54,450 nucleotides of DNA from a virus, in the IMG/VR virus record IMGVR_UViG_3300048089_000161. One strand, given 5' to 3'. The notes under the pieces were generated by a model. The model was not told the origin of the DNA. It saw nothing but the letters and a program-made list of their open reading frames with translations, and searched no databases. This document shows positions 35,962-50,080 of the stretch, piece by piece; the first letter of the stretch is position 1; every line of letters starts with the position of its first letter. The translations under genes and the position numbers were made by a program.

Positions 35962-36240
35962 ATGGGTGACACAGCACGGCCGATCCCCGAGCGGCTCGGC
36001 GATCAGGAAGACCAGGCGGCGCACCTCGTGCGCACCGGCAACGGCCCGACGGTCGAGGACGAGCAGCGGCTACTCGCCGAGCAGTTCGGCGCTCCGGACA
36101 TGGCCGGGTTCTACGTCGGGCCCGGTCTGGCCGACGGACTCACCGGCACAGCGGCCGACCAGGACGACGAGCCCGAGCCGGCCGTCGACGAGGGCGACGC
36201 CCCGGCCGCGGACACCGCGAAGGGGGGCGAGTCCGCATGA
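35962..36240 (+). CDS. Hypothetical acidic protein (92 aa)
   Basis: ORF with an ATG start, coupled (ATGA) to the downstream lysin. Confidence 0.55.
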   Translation: MGDTARPIPERLGDQEDQAAHLVRTGNGPTVEDEQRLLAEQFGAPDMAGFYVGPGLADGLTGTAADQDDEPEPAVDEGDAPAADTAKGGESA

Positions 36241-37052
36241 GCGTCGACACGATGATCGCGCAGGTGGAGCGCTGGATAGGGACCGGCGAGCCGAACGAGA
36301 TTCAGTCGTGGTACCGGGCCCGGAACGGCGCGGCGTACTCCGGCAACTTTGCTTGGTGCGACGCCACGATCACCCGCGCCGCCGTCGACTCGGGCGAGCA
36401 TGACGCGGTGTGCTTCGGGACCGACTTCGCGTACACCGTGGCGCACGCGCAGCGATTCAAGGAAGCGGGCGCCTGGCACGCCATGACCAATGGGATCAAG
36501 GCGAGCGGGATCCGTCGCGGCGACATCATCTTTTTCGACTGGGACGGGTCGAGCGAGATCGGCAAGATCGATCACGTCGGGATCGTCACGGGCGTCTCGG
36601 CCAACTATCAGTACGTGTTCACGATCGAGGGGAACACGAACAACGTCTGCGCGCGCAGGGCGAGGGTCGTGCACGACATCGCCGGGTTCGGCCGCCCGAA
36701 GTACAAGACGCCGCCGAAGTCGACCAGCACGAGCGGCAGTTCGGGCTCGAAGCGGCCGGTCGTGTCTCTCTCGAAACTGATCGCGGCGTTCAAGAAGGAC
36801 GCCCCGAAGAAGGGCACGCCGGTCTCGTACGAGCCGGCGATCTACGTCGAGAACGCGCTCGTCGCCGAGAAGCTGCTCGCGAAGCAGTACGCCGATGGGC
36901 ACGCCGGCACGGCCACCCGCAGCGGCTACAGCCTGTGGCAGCAGCGGTGCGGGTTCCACGGGACGCAGCCGGGCGGCGACGCCGACGGCACGCCCGGCAT
37001 GACGACGCTCAAGCGGCTCGGGCAGAAGCACGGGTTCGACGTCGTCGCCTGA
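36237..37052 (+). CDS. Endolysin: CHAP/NlpC-like amidase domain plus a C-terminal peptidoglycan-binding domain (lysin 2)
   Basis: 'GNFAWCDATITRAA' (Cys), 'KIDHVGIVTG' (His) and a C-terminal 'DADGTPGMTTLKRLGQKHGF' PG_binding_1-like repeat. Confidence 0.8.
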   Translation: MSVDTMIAQVERWIGTGEPNEIQSWYRARNGAAYSGNFAWCDATITRAAVDSGEHDAVCFGTDFAYTVAHAQRFKEAGAWHAMTNGIKASGIRRGDIIFFDWDGSSEIGKIDHVGIVTGVSANYQYVFTIEGNTNNVCARRARVVHDIAGFGRPKYKTPPKSTSTSGSSGSKRPVVSLSKLIAAFKKDAPKKGTPVSYEPAIYVENALVAEKLLAKQYADGHAGTATRSGYSLWQQRCGFHGTQPGGDADGTPGMTTLKRLGQKHGFDVVA

Positions 37053-37483: not shown

Positions 37484-37816
37484 GTGGACGCTGCGACGCT
37501 CGGCGCCGTCGGAACCATCGTCGTCGGGCTCGCAGCGGCCGCGGCCGCCATCGTCGGGCAGCGGGGCGCGAACCGCGCCTCGCAGTCCGGCGCCGTGCTC
37601 GGCGGGTACTCGACGCTCGTCGACAACCTGCAGGAAGAGCGCGACAAGCTCGGCCGACAACTCGCCGAGAACGAAGTGAAGTTGGCCGCGGCGTACGCCG
37701 AACTCGCCAGTGAGCGCGCCAACAAGGCAGCGCTGCAGGGGCAGATCACGACACTCACGACCGAGAACACGCTGCTGCGCGAACGGATCGTCGAGCTTGG
37801 AGGGCAACCCACGTGA
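37484..37816 (+). CDS. Membrane-anchored coiled-coil protein (lysis-cassette accessory)
   Basis: GTG start. An N-terminal TM '[19 protein letters not shown]' is followed by a heptad-like coiled coil. Confidence 0.6.
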
Positions 37817-38493
37817 AGCGCCGTCATGCTCAGCCGATCCTCGCGCAGCGGTGGCGGTCGCTCGCGGTCGCCGCCGTGCTGCTCGTACTGTCGGGCGCCG
37901 TCATCCTGGTGTGGCTGCGGATCGATGCCGAGGCGAACCGTGCCAACGCGCTCGCCGCCGAGGCGAACCTGCGGGGCGACGCCGTCTCGACGCTCGCAGG
38001 CGACGTGCGAGTGCTGCGGGCGCAGATCAAGGCCGACGGCAAGACGCCGGCCGCCCCGGATCCGGCCCGGGCTGTCGACGATCTGCCCGCTCGGGCCGAG
38101 GTGCCCGTACCGATCCCCGGTCCAGCGGGACCCCGCGGGCCGCAGGGCGAGCCCGGCAAGCCAGCACCCACGATCACGCCGTCGCCCGGACAGTCCGGCG
38201 CGCAGGGTGAGCCCGGCGCCACGGTGACCGGCCCGCCCGGAGCGACCGGACCGGTCGGCCCTGCGGGACCCGCCGGCCCGCCGGGCAACAACGGCACGGA
38301 CGGAAAGAACGGGACGGACGGCCGCGACGGGCAGACCTGCCCCGACGGGTACGCCCTGCAGGCACCGTCATGGGATCCCGACGCGCTCGTCTGCAGGCGC
38401 GACGGCACACCGCAGCCGAGCGATCCGTCGCCGAGTCCGACCTCGTCACAGTTGCTGCTCGGTCTGCCCGCCGAGCGCCGCCGCATCGCGTGA
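37813..38493 (+). CDS. Membrane-anchored protein with collagen-like G-X-Y repeats
   Basis: GTGA overlap. It has a TM '[19 protein letters not shown]', then '[15 protein letters not shown]...[34 protein letters not shown]'. Confidence 0.7.
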
Positions 38494-38500
38494 CAGCACT

Positions 38501-38536
38501 GCGCCCCTGTCTGGCCTCACGGCCGGGCAGGGGCGC
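38501..38536 (+). terminator. Terminator hairpin ending the late operon
   Basis: gcgcccctg (38501-38509) pairs with caggggcgc (38528-38536), plus inner pairing. Confidence 0.6.
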
Positions 38537-38559
38537 CTCTGTCGTTCCTCAACGTGACT

Positions 38560-38591
38560 GCGCCCCCCGCAACTTCAGCCGCGGGGGGCGC
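38560..38591. terminator. Second perfect 11-bp-stem hairpin, upstream of the XRE/TPR gene
   Basis: gcgccccccgc (38560-38570) pairs with gcggggggcgc (38581-38591). Confidence 0.5.
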
Positions 38592-38636
38592 ATTCGGCGT
38601 ACCGTTCTGAGTGCGACCAGAGAACGGAGTACCAGT

Positions 38637-39875
38637 ATGCCTCTCAGCACCGACGAGCACATCGGGACCCGCGTGAAGATTGCCCGGCAGGCAGCGGGCC
38701 TAACGCAAGCCGAGATGGCTGGGCTCCTCGCTCACACTGAGTCGTGGCTCGCGAACGTCGAGGCGGGCAGGATGCCGCTCGACCGCTACTCGCTGATCAC
38801 TGCAATCGCAGATCTGTGCGACGTCGACGTCGTATGGCTGCTCGGGCAGCCGTACAGGCTGCAGCGCAGCGGCGGGAACCTCGCGCACGCCCACATTCCA
38901 GCCATGCGCACCGGGCTCCGACGTACCGGACTCATCCTCTCTGGGCACCCTGGGCTCGCTCCGACGGGCGCCCCGGTGGATCTGGCCGACTTGCACAAGC
39001 GCTCGCGGAAGGCGAACGCAGCGCGGCAGGCAGCCGATCTCCCCGCCGTCGCAACGCTGCTGCCGGGAATGATCGAGGATCTCAACACAGCCCTTCTGCA
39101 GGACAGCGGCCGCGACGACGCGCTGCGCCTCATGGTGGACGCAGCCCGGACCGCCCGCATGTGCCTCAACCAACTCGGGTACCCCGATCTTGCGTGGGTC
39201 GCCGCCGAGGTCGGGGCCGGCGCCGCAACCGAACTCGACGACCCCCTCGTCAAAGCCGCTGTCGCATGGGACCGGTGCGGCGCACTACTGCATCAGGCCT
39301 CCCTACCTGAAGCCGTGGCTGTCGCCGAGGCGGCGCTGCGCGATCTCGAACCGCTCGCGTCGATGGGCAACCCGCAGCACGAGGCACTGTCGCTGCGGGG
39401 AGCGCTGCACCTGCGGGCGGCAATCGCGCACGCCCGAGGTGGTCAGGGCGTCGACGCGTGGTCGCGCATCAGCGCCGCTTTGGAAGATGCCGACCGGCTC
39501 GGAACAGGGTTCTACGACCTCGACAACCACACTGTGTTCGGCCGCGGAACTGTCGCCGTGCACGCCGCCGAGGCAGGTGTCGAGGTCGACCAGCCCGACA
39601 CCGGACTGAACAAGGTCAAGGGCGTGAAGGTCGACGAAGTGCCCAGCAAGGAACGCCAGACGCACTACAAGATCGACAAGGCGCGGGCCTACGAACGGAT
39701 GGGTCGCCGTCCGGCCGCCGTGGCGACGCTGCGTCAGGCAGCAAGCGATGCCCCGTACTACGTCCACGCGGACCCGATGGCCCGCGCGTTGGTCTCGAAC
39801 CTCGCGAGGGTCGGCGTTCCATCTCAAGCTGCAGCGCTGTCGTCCCTGATCAGGAACATGGAACTCGTCCACTGA
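38637..39875 (+). CDS. XRE-family HTH regulator with a large alpha-helical (TPR-like) C-terminal domain
   Basis: N-terminus 'IGTRVKIARQAAGLTQAEMAGLLAHTESWLANVEAGR' is a Cro/C1-type HTH. The remaining ~330 aa are helical-repeat-like. The ATG at 38637 follows an agaacggag RBS. Confidence 0.8.
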   Translation: MPLSTDEHIGTRVKIARQAAGLTQAEMAGLLAHTESWLANVEAGRMPLDRYSLITAIADLCDVDVVWLLGQPYRLQRSGGNLAHAHIPAMRTGLRRTGLILSGHPGLAPTGAPVDLADLHKRSRKANAARQAADLPAVATLLPGMIEDLNTALLQDSGRDDALRLMVDAARTARMCLNQLGYPDLAWVAAEVGAGAATELDDPLVKAAVAWDRCGALLHQASLPEAVAVAEAALRDLEPLASMGNPQHEALSLRGALHLRAAIAHARGGQGVDAWSRISAALEDADRLGTGFYDLDNHTVFGRGTVAVHAAEAGVEVDQPDTGLNKVKGVKVDEVPSKERQTHYKIDKARAYERMGRRPAAVATLRQAASDAPYYVHADPMARALVSNLARVGVPSQAAALSSLIRNMELVH

Positions 39876-39898
39876 TCGGTGCTCAACTCCCCCTCGAA

Positions 39899-39925
39899 AG
39901 CGCCCCCTAGGAAATCTAGGGGGCG
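39899..39925 (+). terminator. Perfect 11-bp-stem hairpin directly after the XRE/TPR gene
   Basis: gcgccccctag, then gaaat, then ctagggggcgc. Confidence 0.55.
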
Positions 39926-39993
39926 CGGTCGCTCACACGGTGCACGCTCAAGAGCCACGCTCCGTAAGCGAGAGATCACACGAGGGAAGTCAG

Positions 39994-40563
39994 ATGGAAG
40001 CCATCGACGCCCGACGCCCGGTCGACGCTGCGCGCATCTACCTGCGCGCCTTCAACTGGCCGATCGCGTTAGGCCACCGCTACCGGCCTCGGGCCGGCTG
40101 TACGTGCGAGAACATCGAGTGCCCCACACCCGGTGCTCACCCACTGCCCGGACCCTTCACACCCATCCCCGCCGACGACATCGAGGCGACCCTCGACACC
40201 GCGCCCGGTGCCGGAATCATCGCCGCGTGCGCCGCGTTCGACGCCCTCGTTATGCCGCGCTGGCTGGGACTGGCAACCATGGTCCCGCTCGACCGAGTGA
40301 GCCCCGTACCGTTCATCGACTGCGGTGCGTACTGCGCGTTGCTCGTACTGCCGTCCACTGGCCGCTACGCGCTCGGCGAGCAACCGCCGGCGGCAGTCAC
40401 GTTGCGAACATCCGCGCAGCAGTGGGTCGCTCTGCCACCGACGCACGGGACCCGCTGGGACCCGCCGCCTTGGCAGGAACAGACCGGCGTACGACTCCCG
40501 TTGCTGCATGGCGGTGACGTAGGTCGGCACATGCTCGCCGCTCTGAACCACGTGGGGGCATGA
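39994..40563 (+). CDS. Cassette gene 1: Prim-Pol-like N-terminal domain protein with degenerate catalytic motifs
   Basis: The ATG follows a cgagggaag RBS. 'AARIYLRAFNWPIALGHRY...CTCENIECPTPGAHP' resembles actinobacterial bifunctional primase/polymerase N-domains. The expected DxD position reads 'FDALVMP'. Confidence 0.55.
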   Translation: MEAIDARRPVDAARIYLRAFNWPIALGHRYRPRAGCTCENIECPTPGAHPLPGPFTPIPADDIEATLDTAPGAGIIAACAAFDALVMPRWLGLATMVPLDRVSPVPFIDCGAYCALLVLPSTGRYALGEQPPAAVTLRTSAQQWVALPPTHGTRWDPPPWQEQTGVRLPLLHGGDVGRHMLAALNHVGA

Positions 40564-41012
40564 TGAGTGCTCACGAAGATCACAATCTCGACTGGATCAG
40601 GGACAGCGGCGCGAGCGTGACGCAGACCCTCACGCGATGGGCCGAGGGAGGGCTCGCCGCGCTGCCCGTAGGCAAGGGATGGGACGTCGTCCGCATGGAC
40701 CGGCCGCACGGGTGGCGCACCGTGCAAGCCCTACGCAATGCGGGCGCCAAGATCGGGCCCGTCCTGCATAACGCCGACCATGTCGACGTGTTCGTGCCGG
40801 TCGGTTCGGTCGAGGATTGGGACCAAGAGGGCGCGAGGGTCGTCGCCAAGGGCGACAAGCTGCACGTACCACCACCCGCCGTCGTCGCCCCGCACACGCG
40901 GATCGCCCGCTCGTGGATCGTCCCTCCGGGCACGACGCTCACGGACGGCACGGCGCTGTACGAGGCGTACGCGGCCGCCAGCGCGAGCATGGCCATGGAC
41001 GGCAACCGATGA
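40560..41012 (+). CDS. Cassette gene 2: hypothetical protein (150 aa), distantly Prim-Pol-N-like
   Basis: ATGA-coupled. It contains 'GLAALPVGKGWDVVRMDRPHG...GPVLHNADHVDVFVPVGS'. Confidence 0.55.
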   Translation: MMSAHEDHNLDWIRDSGASVTQTLTRWAEGGLAALPVGKGWDVVRMDRPHGWRTVQALRNAGAKIGPVLHNADHVDVFVPVGSVEDWDQEGARVVAKGDKLHVPPPAVVAPHTRIARSWIVPPGTTLTDGTALYEAYAAASASMAMDGNR

Positions 41013-41500
41013 CCGCCGAGACCATGGTCACCGGGGCTGTGCCCCTCGCGACGCTCATGTCGGTCAACGTCCGCACGTGGCTGGACCACACAGATGCGGG
41101 CGAGCCGATCCCCTGTCTGATGCTCACCTGCTCGGCGCCGCAGTTCGACGAGGCCGACCCGGCCGCCATCGAGGCCAACATGCGACAGGTGGTGCAGTCG
41201 CTCGGCGCCGTCCCAGCCGGCGGCGAGTCGGTGCCCGACGTCGGCGTGCGACTGACGATCAACGGCGGCGTGGCTCGGCTGTGGTTTCTGGAGAGCGGCT
41301 ACGCGCTCAAAGTGCCGCACCCCAGATGGGTACGCGGACTCAAAGACTGCGGCGGCGCGCTGCTCGTGGTCGGGCTCGACGAGCTGTCGCAAGTCGCGTC
41401 AGTGGCCGAGGTCGACGAATACCGGGCGAACGCCCGTGCAGGCGGGCGTCTGTACCTCGCCCTCGCCCACCTCGGCCGCCCCGTTGGGGGTGCCTTGTGA
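41009..41500 (+). CDS. Cassette gene 3: hypothetical protein (163 aa)
   Basis: ATGA-coupled. No motif was recognised. Confidence 0.55.
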   Translation: MTAETMVTGAVPLATLMSVNVRTWLDHTDAGEPIPCLMLTCSAPQFDEADPAAIEANMRQVVQSLGAVPAGGESVPDVGVRLTINGGVARLWFLESGYALKVPHPRWVRGLKDCGGALLVVGLDELSQVASVAEVDEYRANARAGGRLYLALAHLGRPVGGAL

Positions 41501-42132
41501 AGGAAGCACCGGCGCGGCCCGACGTCGTGCCGTTCATCGCGCCATGGAGCGGCGAGCAGTCTCACAGGCGCAAAATGATCTACTCGGCGCGGGGCGGGAT
41601 CGCGTTCGCCGACGAGACGCCCGAGGACCGCGACCAATACGGCGTGCTCTGGAACGGCCGCGCCCTGGCGCAGGGCACAGGGCGCCCGGAGTACGCCAAC
41701 GTGCACCCGATGCGGCAGCGCGTAGCGATGGAATACCACTTGTGTCAGGTGTGCGGGGGGTCCGCCGACCGCAACTCTGACGGCATGTTGTGGCTGCTCG
41801 AAGACGACCGGGCCGCATACAAGGGTTGGCCGAACGACCTGCTCACGACGCACCCCCCGGTCTGCCTGCCGTGCGCGGGCAAGGCGGTCGAGCAGTGCCA
41901 TCACCTCGCCGGCAGCAGCGTCGCCGTGCGCGTCCGCGAGAGCGAGGTGTGTGGGGTGTACGGGCGCGTCTGGTCGCCCTCGGCGTTCGGATATCCGGTG
42001 CGGACCGCCGTCAAGGATGTAGCCGCGTACGGCACGACTGCCTCGCGCTGGATGCTCGCGGGGCAGCTCGTGCGCTCCCTGCACGGCTGCACGTTCGTCG
42101 ACCTGCAGCGCGAAGTCGCGCGTTCCCGATGA
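41497..42132 (+). CDS. Cassette gene 4: hypothetical Cys-cluster protein (211 aa)
   Basis: GTGA-coupled. 'CQVCGGSA...PPVCLPCAGKAVEQCHH' suggests a zinc site. Confidence 0.55.
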   Translation: MKEAPARPDVVPFIAPWSGEQSHRRKMIYSARGGIAFADETPEDRDQYGVLWNGRALAQGTGRPEYANVHPMRQRVAMEYHLCQVCGGSADRNSDGMLWLLEDDRAAYKGWPNDLLTTHPPVCLPCAGKAVEQCHHLAGSSVAVRVRESEVCGVYGRVWSPSAFGYPVRTAVKDVAAYGTTASRWMLAGQLVRSLHGCTFVDLQREVARSR

Positions 42133-42434
42133 CAGGGTCACCCGGCGGTCGACGTTCCCCCGAGTTTCCCGTCGGGTGGCCCGCACGATGGTTCGAATGT
42201 AGGTTCGAATCAGGTCAACGTGTTTGGCATATGCACCAATCGGGGGATCACCCCCCAGCGCCCGTTAGCGACGGCTAGACGGCGCCCCCGGACGGGCGCG
42301 GCAGGTTCCTCACGCGCGAGGTCCCGTTCCGTCCAAAGCGCGGAGTCGCGCCCTGACCGCCCCGGCTGCCCCGTAAGGTGGCGCCGGGGCGGGCTCCGTT
42401 CGGGGGCTGAGATCGCGTCAAAGTTCCAAGAATC

Positions 42435-42450
42435 TCAGGCCAAGCGCCTT
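42435..42450 (+). repeat. attP arm-type repeat TCAGGCCAAGCGCCTT, copy 1
   Basis: Perfect 16-bp direct repeat of 42620-42635. Its core GGCCAAGCGC is also present inverted at 42522-42531. Confidence 0.7.
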
Positions 42451-42514
42451 TCTTTAGTCTGGTCTGAGCCGACCAGCAAAGACGCAGGTAAGCACATCGC
42501 TAAACCTCGTACAC

Positions 42515-42556
42515 CTTCTAAGCGCTTGGCCGCAGGTTCGAGTCCTGCCGGGGGCG
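42515..42556 (+). other. attP core: 3' half of a tRNA-Arg(UCU)-like sequence (anticodon loop to discriminator). It is not a complete tRNA gene.
   Basis: cttctaa (loop, anticodon TCT), gcgct, tggcc, gcagg-ttcgagt-cctgc (T arm), cgggggc (3' acceptor strand), g. No complementary 5' acceptor strand (gcccccg) or D arm lies upstream. Confidence 0.6.
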
Positions 42557-42568
42557 CCCAACCTGTCT

Positions 42569-42593
42569 GACCAGCGGAAACGCTGGTCTTTTT
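42569..42593 (+). terminator. Rho-independent terminator just downstream of the tRNA-like core
   Basis: gaccagcg, then gaaa, then cgctggtc, followed by ttttt. Confidence 0.8.
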
Positions 42594-42619
42594 CATTTCC
42601 CTCCCTGCGCACATCGCTA

Positions 42620-42635
42620 TCAGGCCAAGCGCCTT
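42620..42635 (+). repeat. attP arm-type repeat TCAGGCCAAGCGCCTT, copy 2, preceded by the 11-bp repeat GCACATCGCTA (42609-42619, also at 42492-42502)
   Basis: Direct reading. Confidence 0.7.
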
Positions 42636-42638
42636 GAC

Positions 42639-42656
42639 TGTCCACGATCGTGGGCA
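42639..42656. promoter_or_regulatory. Operator O-int: TGTCCACGATCGTGGGCA, 13 nt upstream of the integrase ATG
   Basis: Same 18-mer as at 44695-44712, with the 12-bp perfect palindrome CCACGATCGTGG at its centre. Confidence 0.7.
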
Positions 42657-42668
42657 CATCGTATTCTC

Positions 42669-43640
42669 ATGGCAGATGAGCGCTACAACATCGGGCCCAT
42701 GGCTGCGTCATGGCTGCGTGCCCTCAAGTCGGAGAACAAGAGCGACAACACGATCCGGATCTACGCACACGCGATCAATTCGTTCGCGTGGTTCCTGCTC
42801 GACGAGGAAGACGGATACCAGCCGGTCGCCAACGAGGACGGCACTCCCGGCCGGCCCGCCCCGACCGACCTCGACGAGATACACCGCGAGCATGTGCAGG
42901 CGTACATCGCCGCGACGATCGCCCGCACCTCGGCGTCGAACGCACACAACCACTTCCGTTCGCTGAAAACCTTCTTCGGCTGGCTGCACGACGAGGAAGA
43001 GATCGACCGCACCCCCATGCGGACGATGAAGCCCCCGACGGTCACCGAGACCGAGGTACCCGTCATCACCGAGGGCGACCTCGTGAAGCTGTTCAAGGCG
43101 TGCAAGGGGAAGACGTACGCCGACCGCCGAGACACGGCGATCCTGATGCTGTTCCTCGACACGGGCGTGCGGCTGTCCGAACTCACCGACCGTAGGGTCG
43201 CCGACCTCGACCTCGACCTCATGGTGCTGCGGGTCTTGGGCAAGAAAGACAAGTGGCGATCTGTGCCGTTCGGCCGCGCGACCGCGACCGCCCTCGACCG
43301 GTACCTGCGGGCGGCCGCGAAGCACAAGGGCAAGGCGCTGCACGAGGAGATGTGGCTGTGGTGGGCCGACCGCGGGAAGGGGAATCGGCTCACCATCTGG
43401 GGTGTGGGGACCATGCTCAAGCGGCGGTGTGCCGAGGCCGGGATCGATCCGATCCACCCTCACCAGTTCCGGCACACGTTCGCGCACCTGTGGAAGGTGG
43501 GCGGCGGGAACGAGGACGACTTGATGCGTATCACCGGGTGGAGTTCGCGGCAGATGCTGTCTCGCTACGCGGCGTCGGCCGGCGCCGAGCGCGCACGCGC
43601 CGCTCATGCCCGTCTCAGTCCGGCGGATCGGATCGCCTGA
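42669..43640 (+). CDS. int: Tyrosine integrase (XerC/D-like phage integrase)
   Basis: It has an N-terminal SAM-like domain. The catalytic residue contexts are 'ILMLFLDTGVRLSEL' (R), 'HPHQFRHTFA' (HxxR) and 'WSSRQMLSRY' (Y). Confidence 0.92.
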   Translation: MADERYNIGPMAASWLRALKSENKSDNTIRIYAHAINSFAWFLLDEEDGYQPVANEDGTPGRPAPTDLDEIHREHVQAYIAATIARTSASNAHNHFRSLKTFFGWLHDEEEIDRTPMRTMKPPTVTETEVPVITEGDLVKLFKACKGKTYADRRDTAILMLFLDTGVRLSELTDRRVADLDLDLMVLRVLGKKDKWRSVPFGRATATALDRYLRAAAKHKGKALHEEMWLWWADRGKGNRLTIWGVGTMLKRRCAEAGIDPIHPHQFRHTFAHLWKVGGGNEDDLMRITGWSSRQMLSRYAASAGAERARAAHARLSPADRIA

Positions 43641-43650
43641 ACAACAACTG

Positions 43651-43692
43651 CGCCCCGGTGCCCGGCTCGTCGACGAGCCGGCTACCGGGGCG
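43651..43692. terminator. Long hairpin between convergent int and ORF 43715..43900 (bidirectional terminator)
   Basis: cgccccggt (43651-43659) pairs with accggggcg (43684-43692). This encloses the inner 20-bp perfect palindrome ccggctcgtcgacgagccgg (43662-43681; ccggctcg 43662-43669 pairs with cgagccgg 43674-43681 around tcga). Confidence 0.7.
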
Positions 43693-43714
43693 TACGTGTG
43701 CAGCCGGGCGAGGG

Positions 43715-43900
43715 TTACGGCTCTCGCTGCACTGAGAGATTGCCGACGAGTTGCGGCATGCCCAGGCACAGAAGTGCGAGTGCCGAAGCCTCGTCGATCT
43801 GTTGGGGATCGTGAGCGAGCCGGACGTACTTCCCGAAGTCGCGATACATCATCGGCACACCTCGGTCGAGTTCGACCTGCTCCACTCGCACATCTGTCAC
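43715..43900 (-). CDS. Hypothetical small protein (61 aa)
   Basis: Reverse-strand ORF between int and the repressor. No motif was recognised and coding status is uncertain. Confidence 0.35.
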   Translation of the reverse strand: MTDVRVEQVELDRGVPMMYRDFGKYVRLAHDPQQIDEASALALLCLGMPQLVGNLSVQREP

Positions 43901-44097
43901 GTGACCCCCAGTTCCCGCCGGTCGATTGAGTGCAGCACCAATCGAACCGACGTTCGATACGCGCGAGGTTCGATCACTCTACGACGAGGCAGGGTCTAAA
44001 CACAGGGCGTTTCACCTGACACGGTGTGTGATCTCGTCACCAAGAGGCGACAGGCTAAACGCGACTTCACGGAAGCATCACCCGATCGAGTGAGCGC

Positions 44098-44481
44098 TTA
44101 CCGCTCGGCGTCCCATCGCTCTGCTACCGCCTGCGCCTTATCGGTGGATCCGTCCGTGTCTCCGTCCGGACCGATCATGCGAAGCAGGACGGCCGGCGCC
44201 CCGCTCGCCAACTCGACCTCGGTGTACCCGATCACTTGCAAGTGCGCCGCGGCCGCGACGATCGCACGGTCGATCCCGAGCCCGATGGCGAGCGCGCCGA
44301 CGAGTTGAGGCGTGACGTCGTACCCCTGGTCGCGGATGATCTTCGCGACCAGGCTCTTACTCGGCGACCATCCGGTATCCGGGTCCACAGCAGCGTCCGC
44401 GAACTCTCGTGTGGACACGCGCCGCCCTACGCCGACATGCGCCTTCACGAGTTCCGTGAGCGCGTTGCGCTGCTCTGGCAT
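44098..44481 (-). CDS. Putative immunity repressor (HTH DNA-binding protein)
   Basis: 127 aa. 'RRVSTREFADAAV...SKSLVAKIIRDQGYDVTPQLVGALAIGLGID' is HTH-like. It is divergent from a cro-like gene across a 250-bp region carrying three operator copies. Confidence 0.65.
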   Translation of the reverse strand: MPEQRNALTELVKAHVGVGRRVSTREFADAAVDPDTGWSPSKSLVAKIIRDQGYDVTPQLVGALAIGLGIDRAIVAAAAHLQVIGYTEVELASGAPAVLLRMIGPDGDTDGSTDKAQAVAERWDAER

Positions 44482-44578
44482 CCCTCCGCCTCTCCAGCCT
44501 CATAAGTCCACACCCAAAACCGGGCGAACAAGCGAATTCGCAGGTCAGGGCGTACAACCATTTCGGTCTGCGAGACAT

Positions 44579-44596
44579 TGTCCACGATCGGGGGCA
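44579..44596. promoter_or_regulatory. Operator copy (TGTCCACGATCGGGGGCA, one mismatch)
   Basis: Direct reading in the repressor/cro intergenic region. Confidence 0.65.
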
Positions 44597-44648
44597 GTCA
44601 TGGGGGCTCCGGGGGCATGCTCGGCTGATTCTTAACTCCCCCATAAGG

Positions 44649-44666
44649 TGCCCACGATCGTGGACG
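44649..44666. promoter_or_regulatory. Operator copy (TGCCCACGATCGTGGACG, inverted orientation)
   Basis: Direct reading. Confidence 0.65.
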
Positions 44667-44694
44667 CCGTTCGAACGATGTGCTCTACTGAGGC

Positions 44695-44712
44695 TGTCCA
44701 CGATCGTGGGCA
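44695..44712. promoter_or_regulatory. Operator copy (TGTCCACGATCGTGGGCA), just upstream of the cro-like RBS
   Basis: Identical to 42639-42656. Confidence 0.7.
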
Positions 44713-44731
44713 GCAAAACGGAGGCTCATCC

Positions 44732-45112
44732 ATGACCCCTGCCCGGCTCCATCTGACCAGCAATCACATGCTGCGAGGACTGATGACCTGGGCGCCGGGC
44801 GGCGGCTCGCTGGATATCCGGAAGCTCGCCGACGCCGTCGGCGTCTCGAAGAGCAAGATCGGCGCACTGCTGTCGGGGGAACGCCCTTCGGTCACAAAGG
44901 ACATTGCCGACCGCATATGCGAAGTGCTCGACGTACGTCGGGACGCTCTTTTTTATGACCCACTGCCCACGCCCATGGGCGTGGGCAGTCATCCCAAGGA
45001 AGGGGCAGAACGACGTGAACACGAGCGAGCGGTCGCAACAGATGAGGTTCGCGGCTCACATGAGTTGGGCGAACACCTCGAACAGGTCGGCTCGTACCGC
45101 CGCCGCTCGTAG
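44732..45112 (+). CDS. Cro/XRE-like HTH regulator
   Basis: The ATG at 44732 follows an aacggagg RBS. 'IRKLADAVGVSKSKIGALLSGERPSVTKDIADRICEVL' is a Cro/C1 HTH. The last ~30 codons overlap the next gene out of frame. Confidence 0.65.
   Translation: MTPARLHLTSNHMLRGLMTWAPGGGSLDIRKLADAVGVSKSKIGALLSGERPSVTKDIADRICEVLDVRRDALFYDPLPTPMGVGSHPKEGAERREHERAVATDEVRGSHELGEHLEQVGSYRRRS
44963..44988. repeat. 26-bp perfect palindrome CTGCCCACGCCCATGGGCGTGGGCAG
   Basis: Self-complementary on direct reading. It lies inside the cro-like ORF and ~27 nt upstream of the GTG at 45015. Confidence 0.9.
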
Positions 45113-45341
45113 GGCGTCGCATCACACGCGGTTCGTCGACATGGCGCGAGAGAAGCACCCCGACGCGACCGAGCAGCAGATCGCACAGATCGCTGAGTCG
45201 CTGCGCAGTGCGCATTACACCGCGCTCGCCCTCAAGTCGGCGGCCGCCCGCCGCGCCAAGAGCGAGGCCACGAAGGCGAAGAAGCGGGCCGAGGCGCAGC
45301 AGCACCTCGCGAACTACCGCCCCGGCGCGGCCGCCGCCTGA
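45015..45341 (+). CDS. Hypothetical basic protein (108 aa)
   Basis: The GTG at 45015 follows an aaggaagggg RBS, with the ATG at 45045 as an alternative. 'MRFAAHMSWANTSNRSARTAAARRA...' has genic composition. The start is uncertain because of the 98-nt overlap with the cro-like ORF. Confidence 0.5.
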   Translation: MNTSERSQQMRFAAHMSWANTSNRSARTAAARRASHHTRFVDMAREKHPDATEQQIAQIAESLRSAHYTALALKSAAARRAKSEATKAKKRAEAQQHLANYRPGAAAA

Positions 45342-48991: not shown

Positions 48992-48994
48992 CCC

Positions 48995-50080
48995 ATGGGT
49001 TCGCGCATCATGACCATGAAGCGGCAGGCGGCCGAACTCGGCCGGATCCGCACCGGCTACAGCCGGCCCAACCCGAAGCCCAACGCGCGGCCGATCCCGG
49101 TCAAGTCCAAGACGTTCATCCTCACCTCGCACTCGCGCGAGTACATCGCCGCGGCGGCCGAGCTGTACGGCGGCCGGGTCGAGCAGTGGACGCCGCAGGG
49201 GCAGCCCGTCGCGCAGTGGCGGGTCATCACCGCGGCGACAGAACTGCGGGCGATCCTGCCCGCCGGCGACCCGCTCGACCAGTCAAACGAGATGTGGTCG
49301 GGCGGCGGCTGCTCGCGGCGCTGCGACGGCGTGACCGAGCGCCTGTCGGGCAACGCGTGCATCTGCCTTACGCAGTACGGCGAGGACTGGCACGAGCGCC
49401 CCGCCGACGAGGTGTGCCGCCCGACGTCACGCGTCGGCGTGTTCCTGCCCGATCTTCCCGACCTCGGCGTGTGGCGGGTCGAGACGAAGTCGTATTACGC
49501 GGCCGACGCGCTCGCCGGCGGGCTCGACACCGTGCTGCAGGCGACGGGCGGCAAGGGCATGATCCCCGTCCGCATGTGGATCGAGCAGCGCAAGGCACTG
49601 CGTAAGGGCAAGACGAAGCAGTTCCAAGTGATCATGATCGTGCCGTCGCTGCCAAAGCTGCGGCACGCCCTGTCGGGCCCGATCAGCACTGCCGCAGCAC
49701 TCGACCCGGCGAGCCTCAACCGCCCGGCGATCGAGGCAGCGCCCGCCGAGCGGCCCGACTACCTCGCCGAGGCACGCGGGTGCCGTACCGCCGACGACGT
49801 GATCGAGGTGTGGCGCAAGGCGAGTGACGCCGGCCACGGATCCGACGAGCTGCTCGACGATCTCAAGGCGATCGCCGCGGACATCAGCAAGGGGATCGAC
49901 CCGCGGACCGGCGAGGTCGGCGAGCAGGACGACGACGCACTCGGGCCGGACGGCGAGGGCGTGTACGACGTCGAGGTGCTCGGCGAGGGCGACGATCCCG
50001 TCGTCGAGGAACCGCCGGCCGCGCCCGCCCGGTCGTCGTGGCCTGCCGCGGCGCAGCCCGGATCGGGGGCACGCCGATGA
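48995..50080 (+). CDS. Conserved phage early protein with a 4-Cys cluster. It may belong to the phiC31 gp3 (RDF-like) family, but this is unverified.
   Basis: 'GRIRTGYSRP...KTFILTS' at the N-terminus, 'CSRRCDG...CICL...C' cluster and an acidic tail. The family assignment is from memory only. Confidence 0.35.
   Translation: MGSRIMTMKRQAAELGRIRTGYSRPNPKPNARPIPVKSKTFILTSHSREYIAAAAELYGGRVEQWTPQGQPVAQWRVITAATELRAILPAGDPLDQSNEMWSGGGCSRRCDGVTERLSGNACICLTQYGEDWHERPADEVCRPTSRVGVFLPDLPDLGVWRVETKSYYAADALAGGLDTVLQATGGKGMIPVRMWIEQRKALRKGKTKQFQVIMIVPSLPKLRHALSGPISTAAALDPASLNRPAIEAAPAERPDYLAEARGCRTADDVIEVWRKASDAGHGSDELLDDLKAIAADISKGIDPRTGEVGEQDDDALGPDGEGVYDVEVLGEGDDPVVEEPPAAPARSSWPAAAQPGSGARR

Follow-up and report, generated by a model that had tools for sequence, protein, structure and literature searches.

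A regulator and four small soluble proteins at the attachment-site end of a temperate Streptomyces phage: a possible phage-borne variant of actinomycete XRE-controlled signaling cassettes

The window analyzed here, i.e., the whole 54,450-nucleotide stretch of IMG/VR virus record IMGVR_UViG_3300048089_000161, is probably the complete genome of a temperate phage in its unintegrated form, represented by a whole contig which was opened at an arbitrary position; its first open reading frame (ORF) begins at base 3. This Streptomyces siphovirus carries a five-gene cassette, consisting of a regulator gene (reg) and four small genes (g1 to g4), which constitutes an accessory ("moron"-type) unit at the end of the genome proximal to the phage attachment site (attP), outside the replication, lysis, and core immunity functions. 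We tentatively propose that this cassette represents a phage-borne variant of the XRE-controlled signaling cassettes of actinomycetes, one which would alter host regulation through lysogenic conversion and might, in addition, act on mobile elements that compete with the phage. The link to the WhiJ/BldB/AbaA-type loci of actinomycetes had been missed in an earlier reading of the same DNA (the first-pass annotation).

All five genes are encoded on the + strand. The product of reg (positions 38637 to 39875; 412 aa) is an XRE-family helix-turn-helix (HTH) regulator with a tetratricopeptide repeat (TPR)-like helical C-terminal domain, while g1 (39994 to 40563; 189 aa) is predicted to encode a protein of the archaeo-eukaryotic primase (AEP; primase-polymerase) fold with degenerate catalytic motifs. 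The overlapping g2 (40560 to 41012; 150 aa) appears to specify a truncated paralog of the g1 AEP core, g3 (41009 to 41500; 163 aa) an acidic, DUF5949-like protein, and g4 (41497 to 42132; 211 aa, GTG start) a zinc-type Cys-rich protein. The GC content at third codon positions, at 0.79 to 0.88, is of the coding type for all five ORFs. As previously noted for the block from 39994 to 42132, the four small genes are linked by stop/start overlaps (ATGA at 40560 to 40563, ATGA at 41009 to 41012, and GTGA at 41497 to 41500), and none of their products harbors a membrane or signal-like hydrophobic stretch (Kyte-Doolittle 19-residue maximum of ≤1.6).

This tight coupling had been taken to imply a fixed multi-subunit system of four genes, a view which is not borne out by the distribution of the genes, as the block was found to be a mosaic of two sub-modules. 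The first of these consists of the presumed operator, reg, its terminator, and g1, often followed by g2. At all 18 g1 loci whose upstream sequence was sufficiently long, the gene 170 to 200 bp upstream of g1 on the same strand is a reg ortholog, and such reg-g1 loci occur on chromosomes, in prophages, on a 24-kb plasmid, and at a locus beside KilB. The regulators which adjoin g1 share 75 to 80% identity with the reg product of the window, whereas the g1 proteins themselves share only ~45 to 58%. A g2-like gene is next after g1 in 9 of 19 mapped g1 loci, and reg and g1 occur alone in locus L088. In a Streptomyces canus prophage (L089:7604-8722), the genes downstream of reg-g1 encode a g2-like protein, a DUF6415 protein, and a radical-SAM protein. 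The scan of metagenomes for g1 yielded six short loci only.

The second sub-module, g2-g3-g4, is found behind a different, unrelated regulator allele. The arrangement reg-g2-g3-g4 is present in 7 of 10 g4-bearing IMG/VR contigs, often at the contig end, and in prophages L006, L010, and L012, while prophage L009 possesses this arrangement plus g1. In the prophages which carry the second sub-module, the flanking DNA is ~75 to 82% identical to that of the window, but positions 38550 to 40587, i.e., reg and g1, have no DNA counterpart, and the regulators of these g1-less sister prophages share only 27 to 30% identity with the reg product of the window. Divergent reg/g4 pairs are, furthermore, present in many genomes. 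Among ~100 surveyed g4 loci, g1 accompanies g4 in only four, these being the window, two near-identical relatives (L009 and an IMG/VR contig represented by L091 and L107), and the metagenome contig L105. The description of a four-gene system is, therefore, too strong, and the units which persist are reg with g1 and g2 with g3 and g4 (or reg with g4).

The gene neighborhoods of g4 connect the cassette to a family of actinomycete regulatory loci. A large XRE regulator is encoded within 5 kb of g4 in at least 52 of 85 nonredundant g4 loci; the neighbors of g4 include a reg-type regulator in 29 of these 85 loci, a WhiJ-type protein (HTH_31 with DUF5753) in 20, another HTH-TPR regulator type in 14, a BldB-type DUF397 protein in 12, and a DUF6879 protein in 9. 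At the chromosomal locus L007, genes for DUF397 and HTH_31-DUF5753 proteins are followed divergently by those for HATPase_c_2, DUF6415, an unassigned product, DUF6302, and g4, so that relatives of g4, DUF6415, and HATPase_c_2 are encoded inside a true WhiJ-type locus. The families are also tied together by DUF6415 fusions, comprising a g1-DUF6415 protein (P0072), a DUF6415-g4 protein (P0245), and a DUF6415-HATPase_c_2 protein encoded directly after g1, downstream of the reg-g1 pair of the 24-kb plasmid (L090:6627-7418). Phage Gilgamesh, in turn, carries an integrase gene, a reg-like gene, a HATPase_c_2 gene (gp34) and, three genes later, a g4-like gene.

WhiJ paralogs are XRE regulators which control an adjacent abaA or iosA gene and are modulated by BldB (DUF397) paralogs (PMC10294661). 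These WhiJ/BldB/AbaA/IosA loci represent XRE-controlled developmental regulators, and IosA, the small output protein of WhiJ9, lacks any structural relative (PMC10294661). The cassette resembles such loci in that an XRE (HTH_31) regulator is encoded beside small cytoplasmic proteins of unknown fold and in that many paralogous copies occur per genome. It differs from them in that the reg product has a TPR-like C terminus rather than DUF5753, in that the partners are apparent pseudo-primases and a zinc-type protein, and in that the locus is phage borne.

A number of g4 orthologs occupy conserved chromosomal sites. In Kitasatospora, g4 is found at syntenic chromosomal positions in L020, L025, L030, L040, and L075, forming a divergent reg/g4 pair in the first three, while L040 and L075 are syntenic without a detectable regulator; these loci adjoin a class I aminoacyl-tRNA synthetase-like gene, a neighbor identified by inspection only. 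Likewise, the syntenic g4 genes of Lentzea (L066, L078, and L083) are located beside acyl-coenzyme A dehydrogenase-like and PurK-like genes, again by inspection only. The synteny of g4 in both genera points to vertical inheritance and, thus, to a cellular regulatory role rather than that of a purely mobile weapon.

The first sub-module carries conserved candidate control sites. The reg gene had been described as bracketed by two perfect hairpins with 11-bp stems, both of which are real. The upstream hairpin lies exactly where it had been placed (38560 to 38591, + strand; 10-nt loop, -30.8 kcal/mol, z = -4.2), while the second, a terminator-like hairpin between reg and g1 (+ strand; 5-nt loop, -28.5 kcal/mol, z = -5.0), is located at 39900 to 39926, one base from its reported position. 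None of 200 shuffled sequences folded as stably as these two hairpins. As 15 of 18 homologous loci also possess the reg-g1 hairpin, 68 to 92 nt ahead of g1 and with compensatory changes in the stem, its occurrence is not attributable to chance. Two further hairpins on the + strand border the cassette: that at 38501 to 38536 (16-bp stem, -38.2 kcal/mol, z = -5.5) ends the preceding late/lysis transcription unit and falls within DNA common to related prophages, whose homology reaches ~38550, while that at 42135 to 42182, directly 3' of the g4 stop codon, is found at the operon end (14-bp outer stem in both the minimum free energy and the centroid folds of 42133 to 42280). A U-tract terminator rule missed these Streptomyces-type hairpins, and scanning for sigma-70 promoters gave no useful information in DNA of such high GC content. 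When the region was compared with the phage collection by blastn, the sole match was a 46-nt stretch at the late-operon end hairpin (38500 to 38545), with 93.5% identity to the lytic Streptomyces flavovirens phages SF1 and SF3, and a permissive Rfam search of positions 38000 to 45200 returned subthreshold chance matches alone.

Eleven nucleotides upstream of the reg start codon, a palindrome, CGTTCT-N12-AGAACG (38603 to 38626), overlaps a conserved -10-like element, TAsCGT (38600 to 38605), and the GGAG ribosome-binding site. It is the sole exact copy within the window and is found at the same site upstream of the reg orthologs of 11 other fetched loci, where it is exact, with spacers of 11 to 14 nt, while the flanks have diverged. 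Such conservation suggests that it is an autoregulatory operator bound by the reg product. Between the terminator-like hairpin and g1, the alignment of five reg-g1 intergenic regions revealed a block of invariant columns, GnCAC-N4-CGTA-N2-CGA-N3-ATCAC, together with the g1 ribosome-binding site (39954 to 39989, + strand), which is presumed to represent the promoter and regulatory site of the g1-to-g4 operon. The nearest prophage relative, in Streptomyces sp. NBC_00986 (L009; 94 to 96% DNA identity), carries a 1.85-kb insertion (L009:4540-6390) exactly 5' of the reg-g1 hairpin, at a point equivalent to window positions 39892 to 39897. The insertion is flanked by a CTAGA duplication and contains two minus-strand ORFs (402 and 190 aa) without Pfam matches; it is probably an insertion sequence-like element which parts reg from its terminator and g1.

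This organization bears on whether the cassette acts as a toxin-antitoxin-like addiction module, in which reg would encode an autoregulating antitoxin and repressor and one of the four small genes a growth-arresting toxin that stabilizes the prophage or plasmid. XRE-HTH proteins with small adjoining partners are classic antitoxins, a toxin-antitoxin or conflict origin has been proposed for XRE-DUF397 pairs by comparative work (PMC2701414, PMC7159879), and both the palindrome and the existence of minimal two-gene forms (reg with g1 in L088 and the divergent reg/g4 pairs) are compatible with such a function. However, the conserved terminator parts reg from the operon, which is, therefore, not cotranscribed in the manner of type II systems, and reg encodes a large protein of 412 aa with a sensor-like domain. 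No recognizable toxin fold or match to a toxin family was found, and the XRE-DUF397 pairs tested in Streptomyces coelicolor were found to regulate antibiotic production and differentiation and did not behave as toxin-antitoxin systems (PMC6262351, PMC10364602). An addiction module is, on this evidence, quite unlikely.

The reg product matches HTH_31 (1.3e-11) and, over its full length, phrog_5823 (1.2e-65). Its family profile detected SinR, 434, P22 C2, and other XRE repressors among PDB sequences over positions 1 to 90, and consensus-TPR proteins weakly (1.5e-5) over positions 300 to 360. The Pfam TPR matches are likewise weak but recur in the family (TPR_7 at 0.13 for reg itself and TPR_12 in 6 of 14 relatives), while DUF5753 is absent from reg and from all 14 family members. 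The earlier description of an HTH plus helical-repeat protein is, thus, sound, and "HTH plus TPR-like" is a fair label for the protein, of which the TPR part is unproven. A role for reg as the main immunity repressor of the phage was considered and rejected, since a divergent gene pair beside the integrase gene fits that role better and the reg family also occurs outside phages.

The domain order, with an XRE HTH at the N terminus and a helical repeat behind it, is also that of the RNPP/AimR-type peptide receptors (PlcR, ComR, Rgg, and AimR), of which AimR is similarly borne by temperate phages. The first-pass annotation had raised such a peptide communication module, setting the choice between lysis and lysogeny, as a candidate, while stating that no obvious small peptide gene was present next to reg. 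The latter statement was upheld, as positions 38494 to 38636 and 39876 to 39993 contain no coding ORF, the 118-nt spacer between reg and g1 being occupied by the hairpin and presumed promoter only. The candidate itself fares poorly: PlcR and ComR were among the reg profile matches over the HTH alone, the similarity to TPR proteins is weak, and the constant companion of reg is not a propeptide gene but g1, which encodes a 189-aa cytoplasmic protein and adjoins reg in all 18 loci. Moreover, the host is an actinomycete, members of the reg family occupy nonphage chromosomal loci, and the phage has a separate immunity region beside its integrase gene. Peptide communication of this type is, consequently, scarcely credible for the cassette.

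The proposal that g1 resembles the N-terminal domain of primase-polymerases but lacks the DxD motif was corroborated. Clustering at 90% identity resolves the g1 family into 57 clusters, from Streptomyces and Kitasatospora, and the AlphaFold2 (AF2) model of g1 (pLDDT of 89.5 and pTM of 0.86) retrieved the primase-polymerase of pRN1 ORF904 from the PDB at Foldseek ranks 1 to 3 (1rni, 9aam, and 3m1m; probabilities of 0.95 to 0.98 and TM scores of 0.48 to 0.54, with 0.98 and 0.52 for the top match), after which probabilities fell to ≤0.08. The Pfam Prim-Pol family, PF09250, is matched by 4 of 33 g1 relatives (best E value of 3.8e-4), while g1 of the window has no Pfam match at an E value of ≤1. 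In the family alignment, the most conserved stretch is NWPIALGHRY...CTCENIECPTPGAHP, and an invariant GCTC-x4-C-x2-PGAHP knuckle (CxC-x4-C-x5-H) probably forms a zinc site. Where the canonical DxD/E, sGxH, and D motifs are expected, the family reads F-D83-A-x-x-x-P, T-G-R-Y, and V-(E/T)-x-R, and only D83 and D156 are invariant, the equivalence of the motifs having been judged by inspecting alignment A3 against the canonical motifs rather than by structural superposition. Sequence and predicted fold together suggest that g1 is a catalytically degenerate pseudo-enzyme with an AEP fold.

The suggestion that g2 is a further degenerate copy was equally well founded. Comparison of the g1 and g2 families by hhalign gave a probability of 91.6% and an E value of 8.1e-7 over 105 columns, one g2 relative matches PF09250 at 3.2e-7, and the g2 hidden Markov model (HMM) also detects g1 proteins. 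The g2 product, a member of phrog_38395, lacks cysteines and the catalytic acidic pair, and its alignment to g1 identifies it as a truncated, degenerate paralog of the g1 core. The pair thus resembles the Prim-Pol proteins of the PF09250 family (pRN1 ORF904 and RepPP of actinomycete integrative and conjugative elements and plasmids) in the predicted fold and Cys/His knuckle of g1 and in the homology of g2 to the g1 core. In contrast to these proteins, the window proteins fall below the Pfam threshold, motifs I (DxD/E), II (His), and III (Asp) all appear from inspection to be replaced, no helicase or other C-terminal domain is present within their 150 to 190 aa, and the genes are always coupled to an XRE regulator rather than to a replicon.

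These differences also weigh on the view that g1 and g2 act in replication or partition, as primase-polymerases or origin-binding proteins. Such a role might be read from the AEP fold of g1, from weaker Foldseek matches to RepB' and the simian virus 40 origin-binding domain, and from the naming of relatives as "DNA primase/polymerase" in some sources. It is nevertheless very improbable, given the degenerate catalytic motifs and the lack of a helicase or C-terminal primase domain. The phage, moreover, encodes a separate initiator in its early region, whereas the cassette follows the lysis genes next to attP, and chromosomes also carry reg and g1 as an isolated pair that is not associated with a replicon.

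No named function could be attached to g3 or g4, as the first-pass annotation had already stated. The g3 product matches phrog_12213 (6.8e-27) and, below the cutoff, DUF5949 (5.7e-4), and its family comprises 38 clusters from Streptomyces only. Wherever the neighborhood could be checked, whether in mapped loci or from consecutive locus tags, g3 adjoins g4. Because hhalign comparison of g3 with DUF6415 (and likewise with g2) revealed no relation, g3 is not simply the DUF6415 gene which sister prophages carry in the same slot.

The g4 product (phrog_30088, 2.3e-48) has relatives in VWB gp57, TurkishDelight gp47, and Gilgamesh gp38, and the cysteine cluster reported for it is conserved, the residues being C83-x2-C86, H119-x3-C123-x2-C126, and C134. 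In an exhaustive HMM search, the family amounted to 1,086 representative clusters when grouped at 50% identity, almost all of them stand-alone proteins of 190 to 250 aa. A GTDB scan located 418 copies in genomes of Streptomyces, Kitasatospora, Lentzea, Actinophytocola, Nocardia, and Pseudonocardiaceae, some of these genomes carrying several. Its AF2 model is confident and β-rich (pLDDT of 91.2 and pTM of 0.84), and Foldseek searches of that model against the PDB and BFVD produced no meaningful match (best E value of 0.07; TM score below 0.2). Residues 119 to 126 (window positions 41851 to 41874) form a nearly invariant HxxxCxxC, the signature of the zinc anti-sigma (ZAS) proteins RsrA, ChrR, and RslA, and some g4 loci encode an anti-sigma-kinase-like HATPase_c_2 protein. 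The g4 model, however, is β-rich rather than a four-helix anti-sigma fold, and Foldseek found no ZAS structure, so that the similarity is a motif-level lead only. An HNH/His-Me nuclease was also considered on the basis of the HNH-like CxxC...CxxC spacing and was rejected, as neither the catalytic His/Asn pattern nor a structural match is present.

Searches for described relatives of the four small proteins were uniformly negative. Phmmer and profile searches against PDB sequences retrieved nothing for g1 to g4 (and, for reg, a generic XRE HTH and weak TPR matches), NCBIfam likewise offered nothing for g1 to g4, and in PADLOC-DB v2 these four had no match at an E value of ≤1, while reg gave generic HTH matches only. 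For none of g1 to g4 has a function been described, nor does any of them score above threshold for a Pfam family, and domain searches of the four revealed no nuclease, NTPase, NADase, pore, toxin, or other effector domain. A literature search covering DUF6415, DUF6302, DUF5949, Streptomyces prophage defense, and inactive primase-polymerases with XRE regulators returned nothing on these families. The pairing of a regulator with a pseudo-primase and the fold of g4, therefore, appear to be undescribed in the literature that could be searched.

The setting of the cassette within the phage genome was as originally described, the order being lysis genes, reg, g1 to g4, attP, and the tyrosine integrase gene. 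The latter (42669 to 43640, + strand; Phage_integrase at 1.6e-24, phrog_1) lies outside the cassette, as does a divergent pair of small genes resembling an immunity region beside it (44098 to 44481 on the - strand and 44648 to 45112 on the + strand, the second encoding HTH_31). The attP core region (42530 to 42569, + strand) resembles, as read from its sequence, a tRNA T-arm and 3' acceptor strand at 42530 to 42556, and blastn homology to the integrated prophages L004, L009, and L010 runs through g4 and ends at 42560, 42569, and 42557, respectively. A search for a full tRNA, both in the window and at the attR end of these three prophages, revealed only the 3' fragment, as expected if the phage integrates at the 3' end of a tRNA gene. 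The end of the homology at 42557 to 42569, beside a tRNA-like 3' fragment, thus places attP at the position previously assigned to it. In the lysogen, the cassette is the final element before attR, and g4 is located ~100 to 1,000 bp from the contig end in several IMG/VR contigs.

Upstream of the cassette, the lysis genes include that for a CHAP endolysin (36237 to 37052). Just before the late-unit hairpin lies a collagen-repeat gene (37813 to 38493), whose product has a hydrophobic N-terminal segment and the PHROG label "collagen-like minor tail"; the gene follows the endolysin gene and small holin-like genes, outside the tail genes, and occupies the same place in related prophages. The phage's own replication initiator (a PHROG label) is encoded in the early region, at 3 to 983, and the structural genes lie between it and the endolysin gene. 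An exonuclease, a Gp3-like protein, and a methyltransferase are encoded elsewhere in the genome, beyond the cassette and integrase gene. The Gp3-like protein (48992 to 50080) matches PF18897 (E value of 3e-46), a family of recombination directionality factors of serine integrases, and its presence alongside a tyrosine integrase suggests another role here.

The slot which the cassette occupies, between the lysis genes on one side and attP with the integrase gene on the other, is shared with the defense "morons" of actinobacteriophages (e.g., those of mycobacteriophage cluster N/A), as is the organization as an independent promoter-gene-terminator unit which varies between otherwise similar prophages. 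A prophage- or plasmid-encoded exclusion or anti-phage system must be weighed, in which the XRE/TPR protein would sense infection and the dead primase-polymerase paralogs, with g3 and g4, would bind to primases or replication intermediates of invading phages, plasmids, or integrative conjugative elements and thereby poison or flag them. The prophage-end cargo slot is a typical place for prophage defense genes, the modules are mosaic, fast diverging, and carried in several copies per genome on phages, the 24-kb plasmid, and next to KilB, an AEP fold could mimic or titrate replication factors, and the tight translational coupling suggests a complex. Unlike the described defense systems, however, the cassette has no sequence or domain similarity to entries in PADLOC (an absence of support rather than a refutation), no visible effector domain, and no membrane segment. 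The g4 orthologs of Kitasatospora and Lentzea reside at conserved chromosomal sites beside apparent housekeeping genes, outside defense islands, and the closest studied neighborhoods, those of WhiJ/BldB/AbaA, are developmental rather than antiviral (PMC10294661, PMC10364602). The cassette is not a classical toxin-based defense system, and an exclusion function in the wider sense is considered doubtful, although it deserves serious attention. Rather improbable is the more specific notion that tandem dead primase-polymerase paralogs and a zinc protein of new fold, under an XRE/TPR sensor, constitute an unrecognized class of actinomycete exclusion system which mimics or titrates the replication initiation of invaders.

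Under the tentatively favored reading, that of an XRE-controlled signaling cassette, reg would be expressed from its own hairpin-bounded unit, and its product would repress reg via the conserved CGTTCT-N12-AGAACG palindrome that overlaps the promoter and ribosome-binding site. Within the 67 nt that follow the reg terminator, a second promoter would drive the synthesis of four translationally coupled, soluble, and apparently nonenzymatic proteins. As reg and g1 are always inherited together, g1 is believed to be the cognate partner of reg; the reg product may control the g1 promoter, with g1 either feeding back on reg or delivering its signal, while g2 to g4 may act by binding DNA or proteins rather than by catalysis. 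Both sub-modules appear to be drawn from a large actinomycete pool of XRE-linked cassettes which includes the WhiJ/BldB/AbaA loci, because DUF6415, HATPase_c_2, DUF397, and DUF5753 neighbors and domain fusions are held in common. Expressed in the lysogen, the cassette would then function, by analogy with WhiJ-type loci, as a switch acting on the host's development or stress physiology and, possibly, on what becomes of competing mobile elements.

Several observations weigh against this reading. The proposed role is argued from gene neighborhood and analogy, and the window contains neither DUF5753 nor a BldB-like DUF397 nor an AbaA-like HATPase_c_2 domain, i.e., it lacks every defining domain of a WhiJ locus. 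A second copy of the palindrome was sought upstream of g1 and was not found, so that control of the operon by reg draws no support from a shared operator. An unusual active site in g1 is conceivable, as D83 and D156 are invariant. Finally, conflict systems would account equally well for the fast diversification of the regulator, for the mosaic structure, for the multiple copies found in single genomes, and for the presence of the cassettes on prophages and plasmids.

Streptomyces genomes encode dozens of WhiJ/BldB/AbaA-type XRE cassettes, which influence sporulation and antibiotic production. The present findings indicate that this pool reaches temperate phages and plasmids, and they add to it previously undescribed families, two of them of pseudo-primases and one of zinc proteins; the latter comprises ~1,000 clusters, and its model, although confident, has no match among solved structures. 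The operator-regulator-terminator-partner unit is compact and, with its candidate operator and a partner that is invariant in 18 of 18 loci, directly testable. Should the pseudo-primases prove to be regulators or decoys, they would represent a new use of the AEP fold, and if the cassette did belong to an unrecognized exclusion class, the WhiJ/BldB/AbaA-type loci, long seen as developmental regulators, would be domesticated relatives of conflict systems. The phage-borne version of these cassettes could, in this way, distinguish lysogenic conversion of host development from the exclusion of competing elements, or reveal that both are served.

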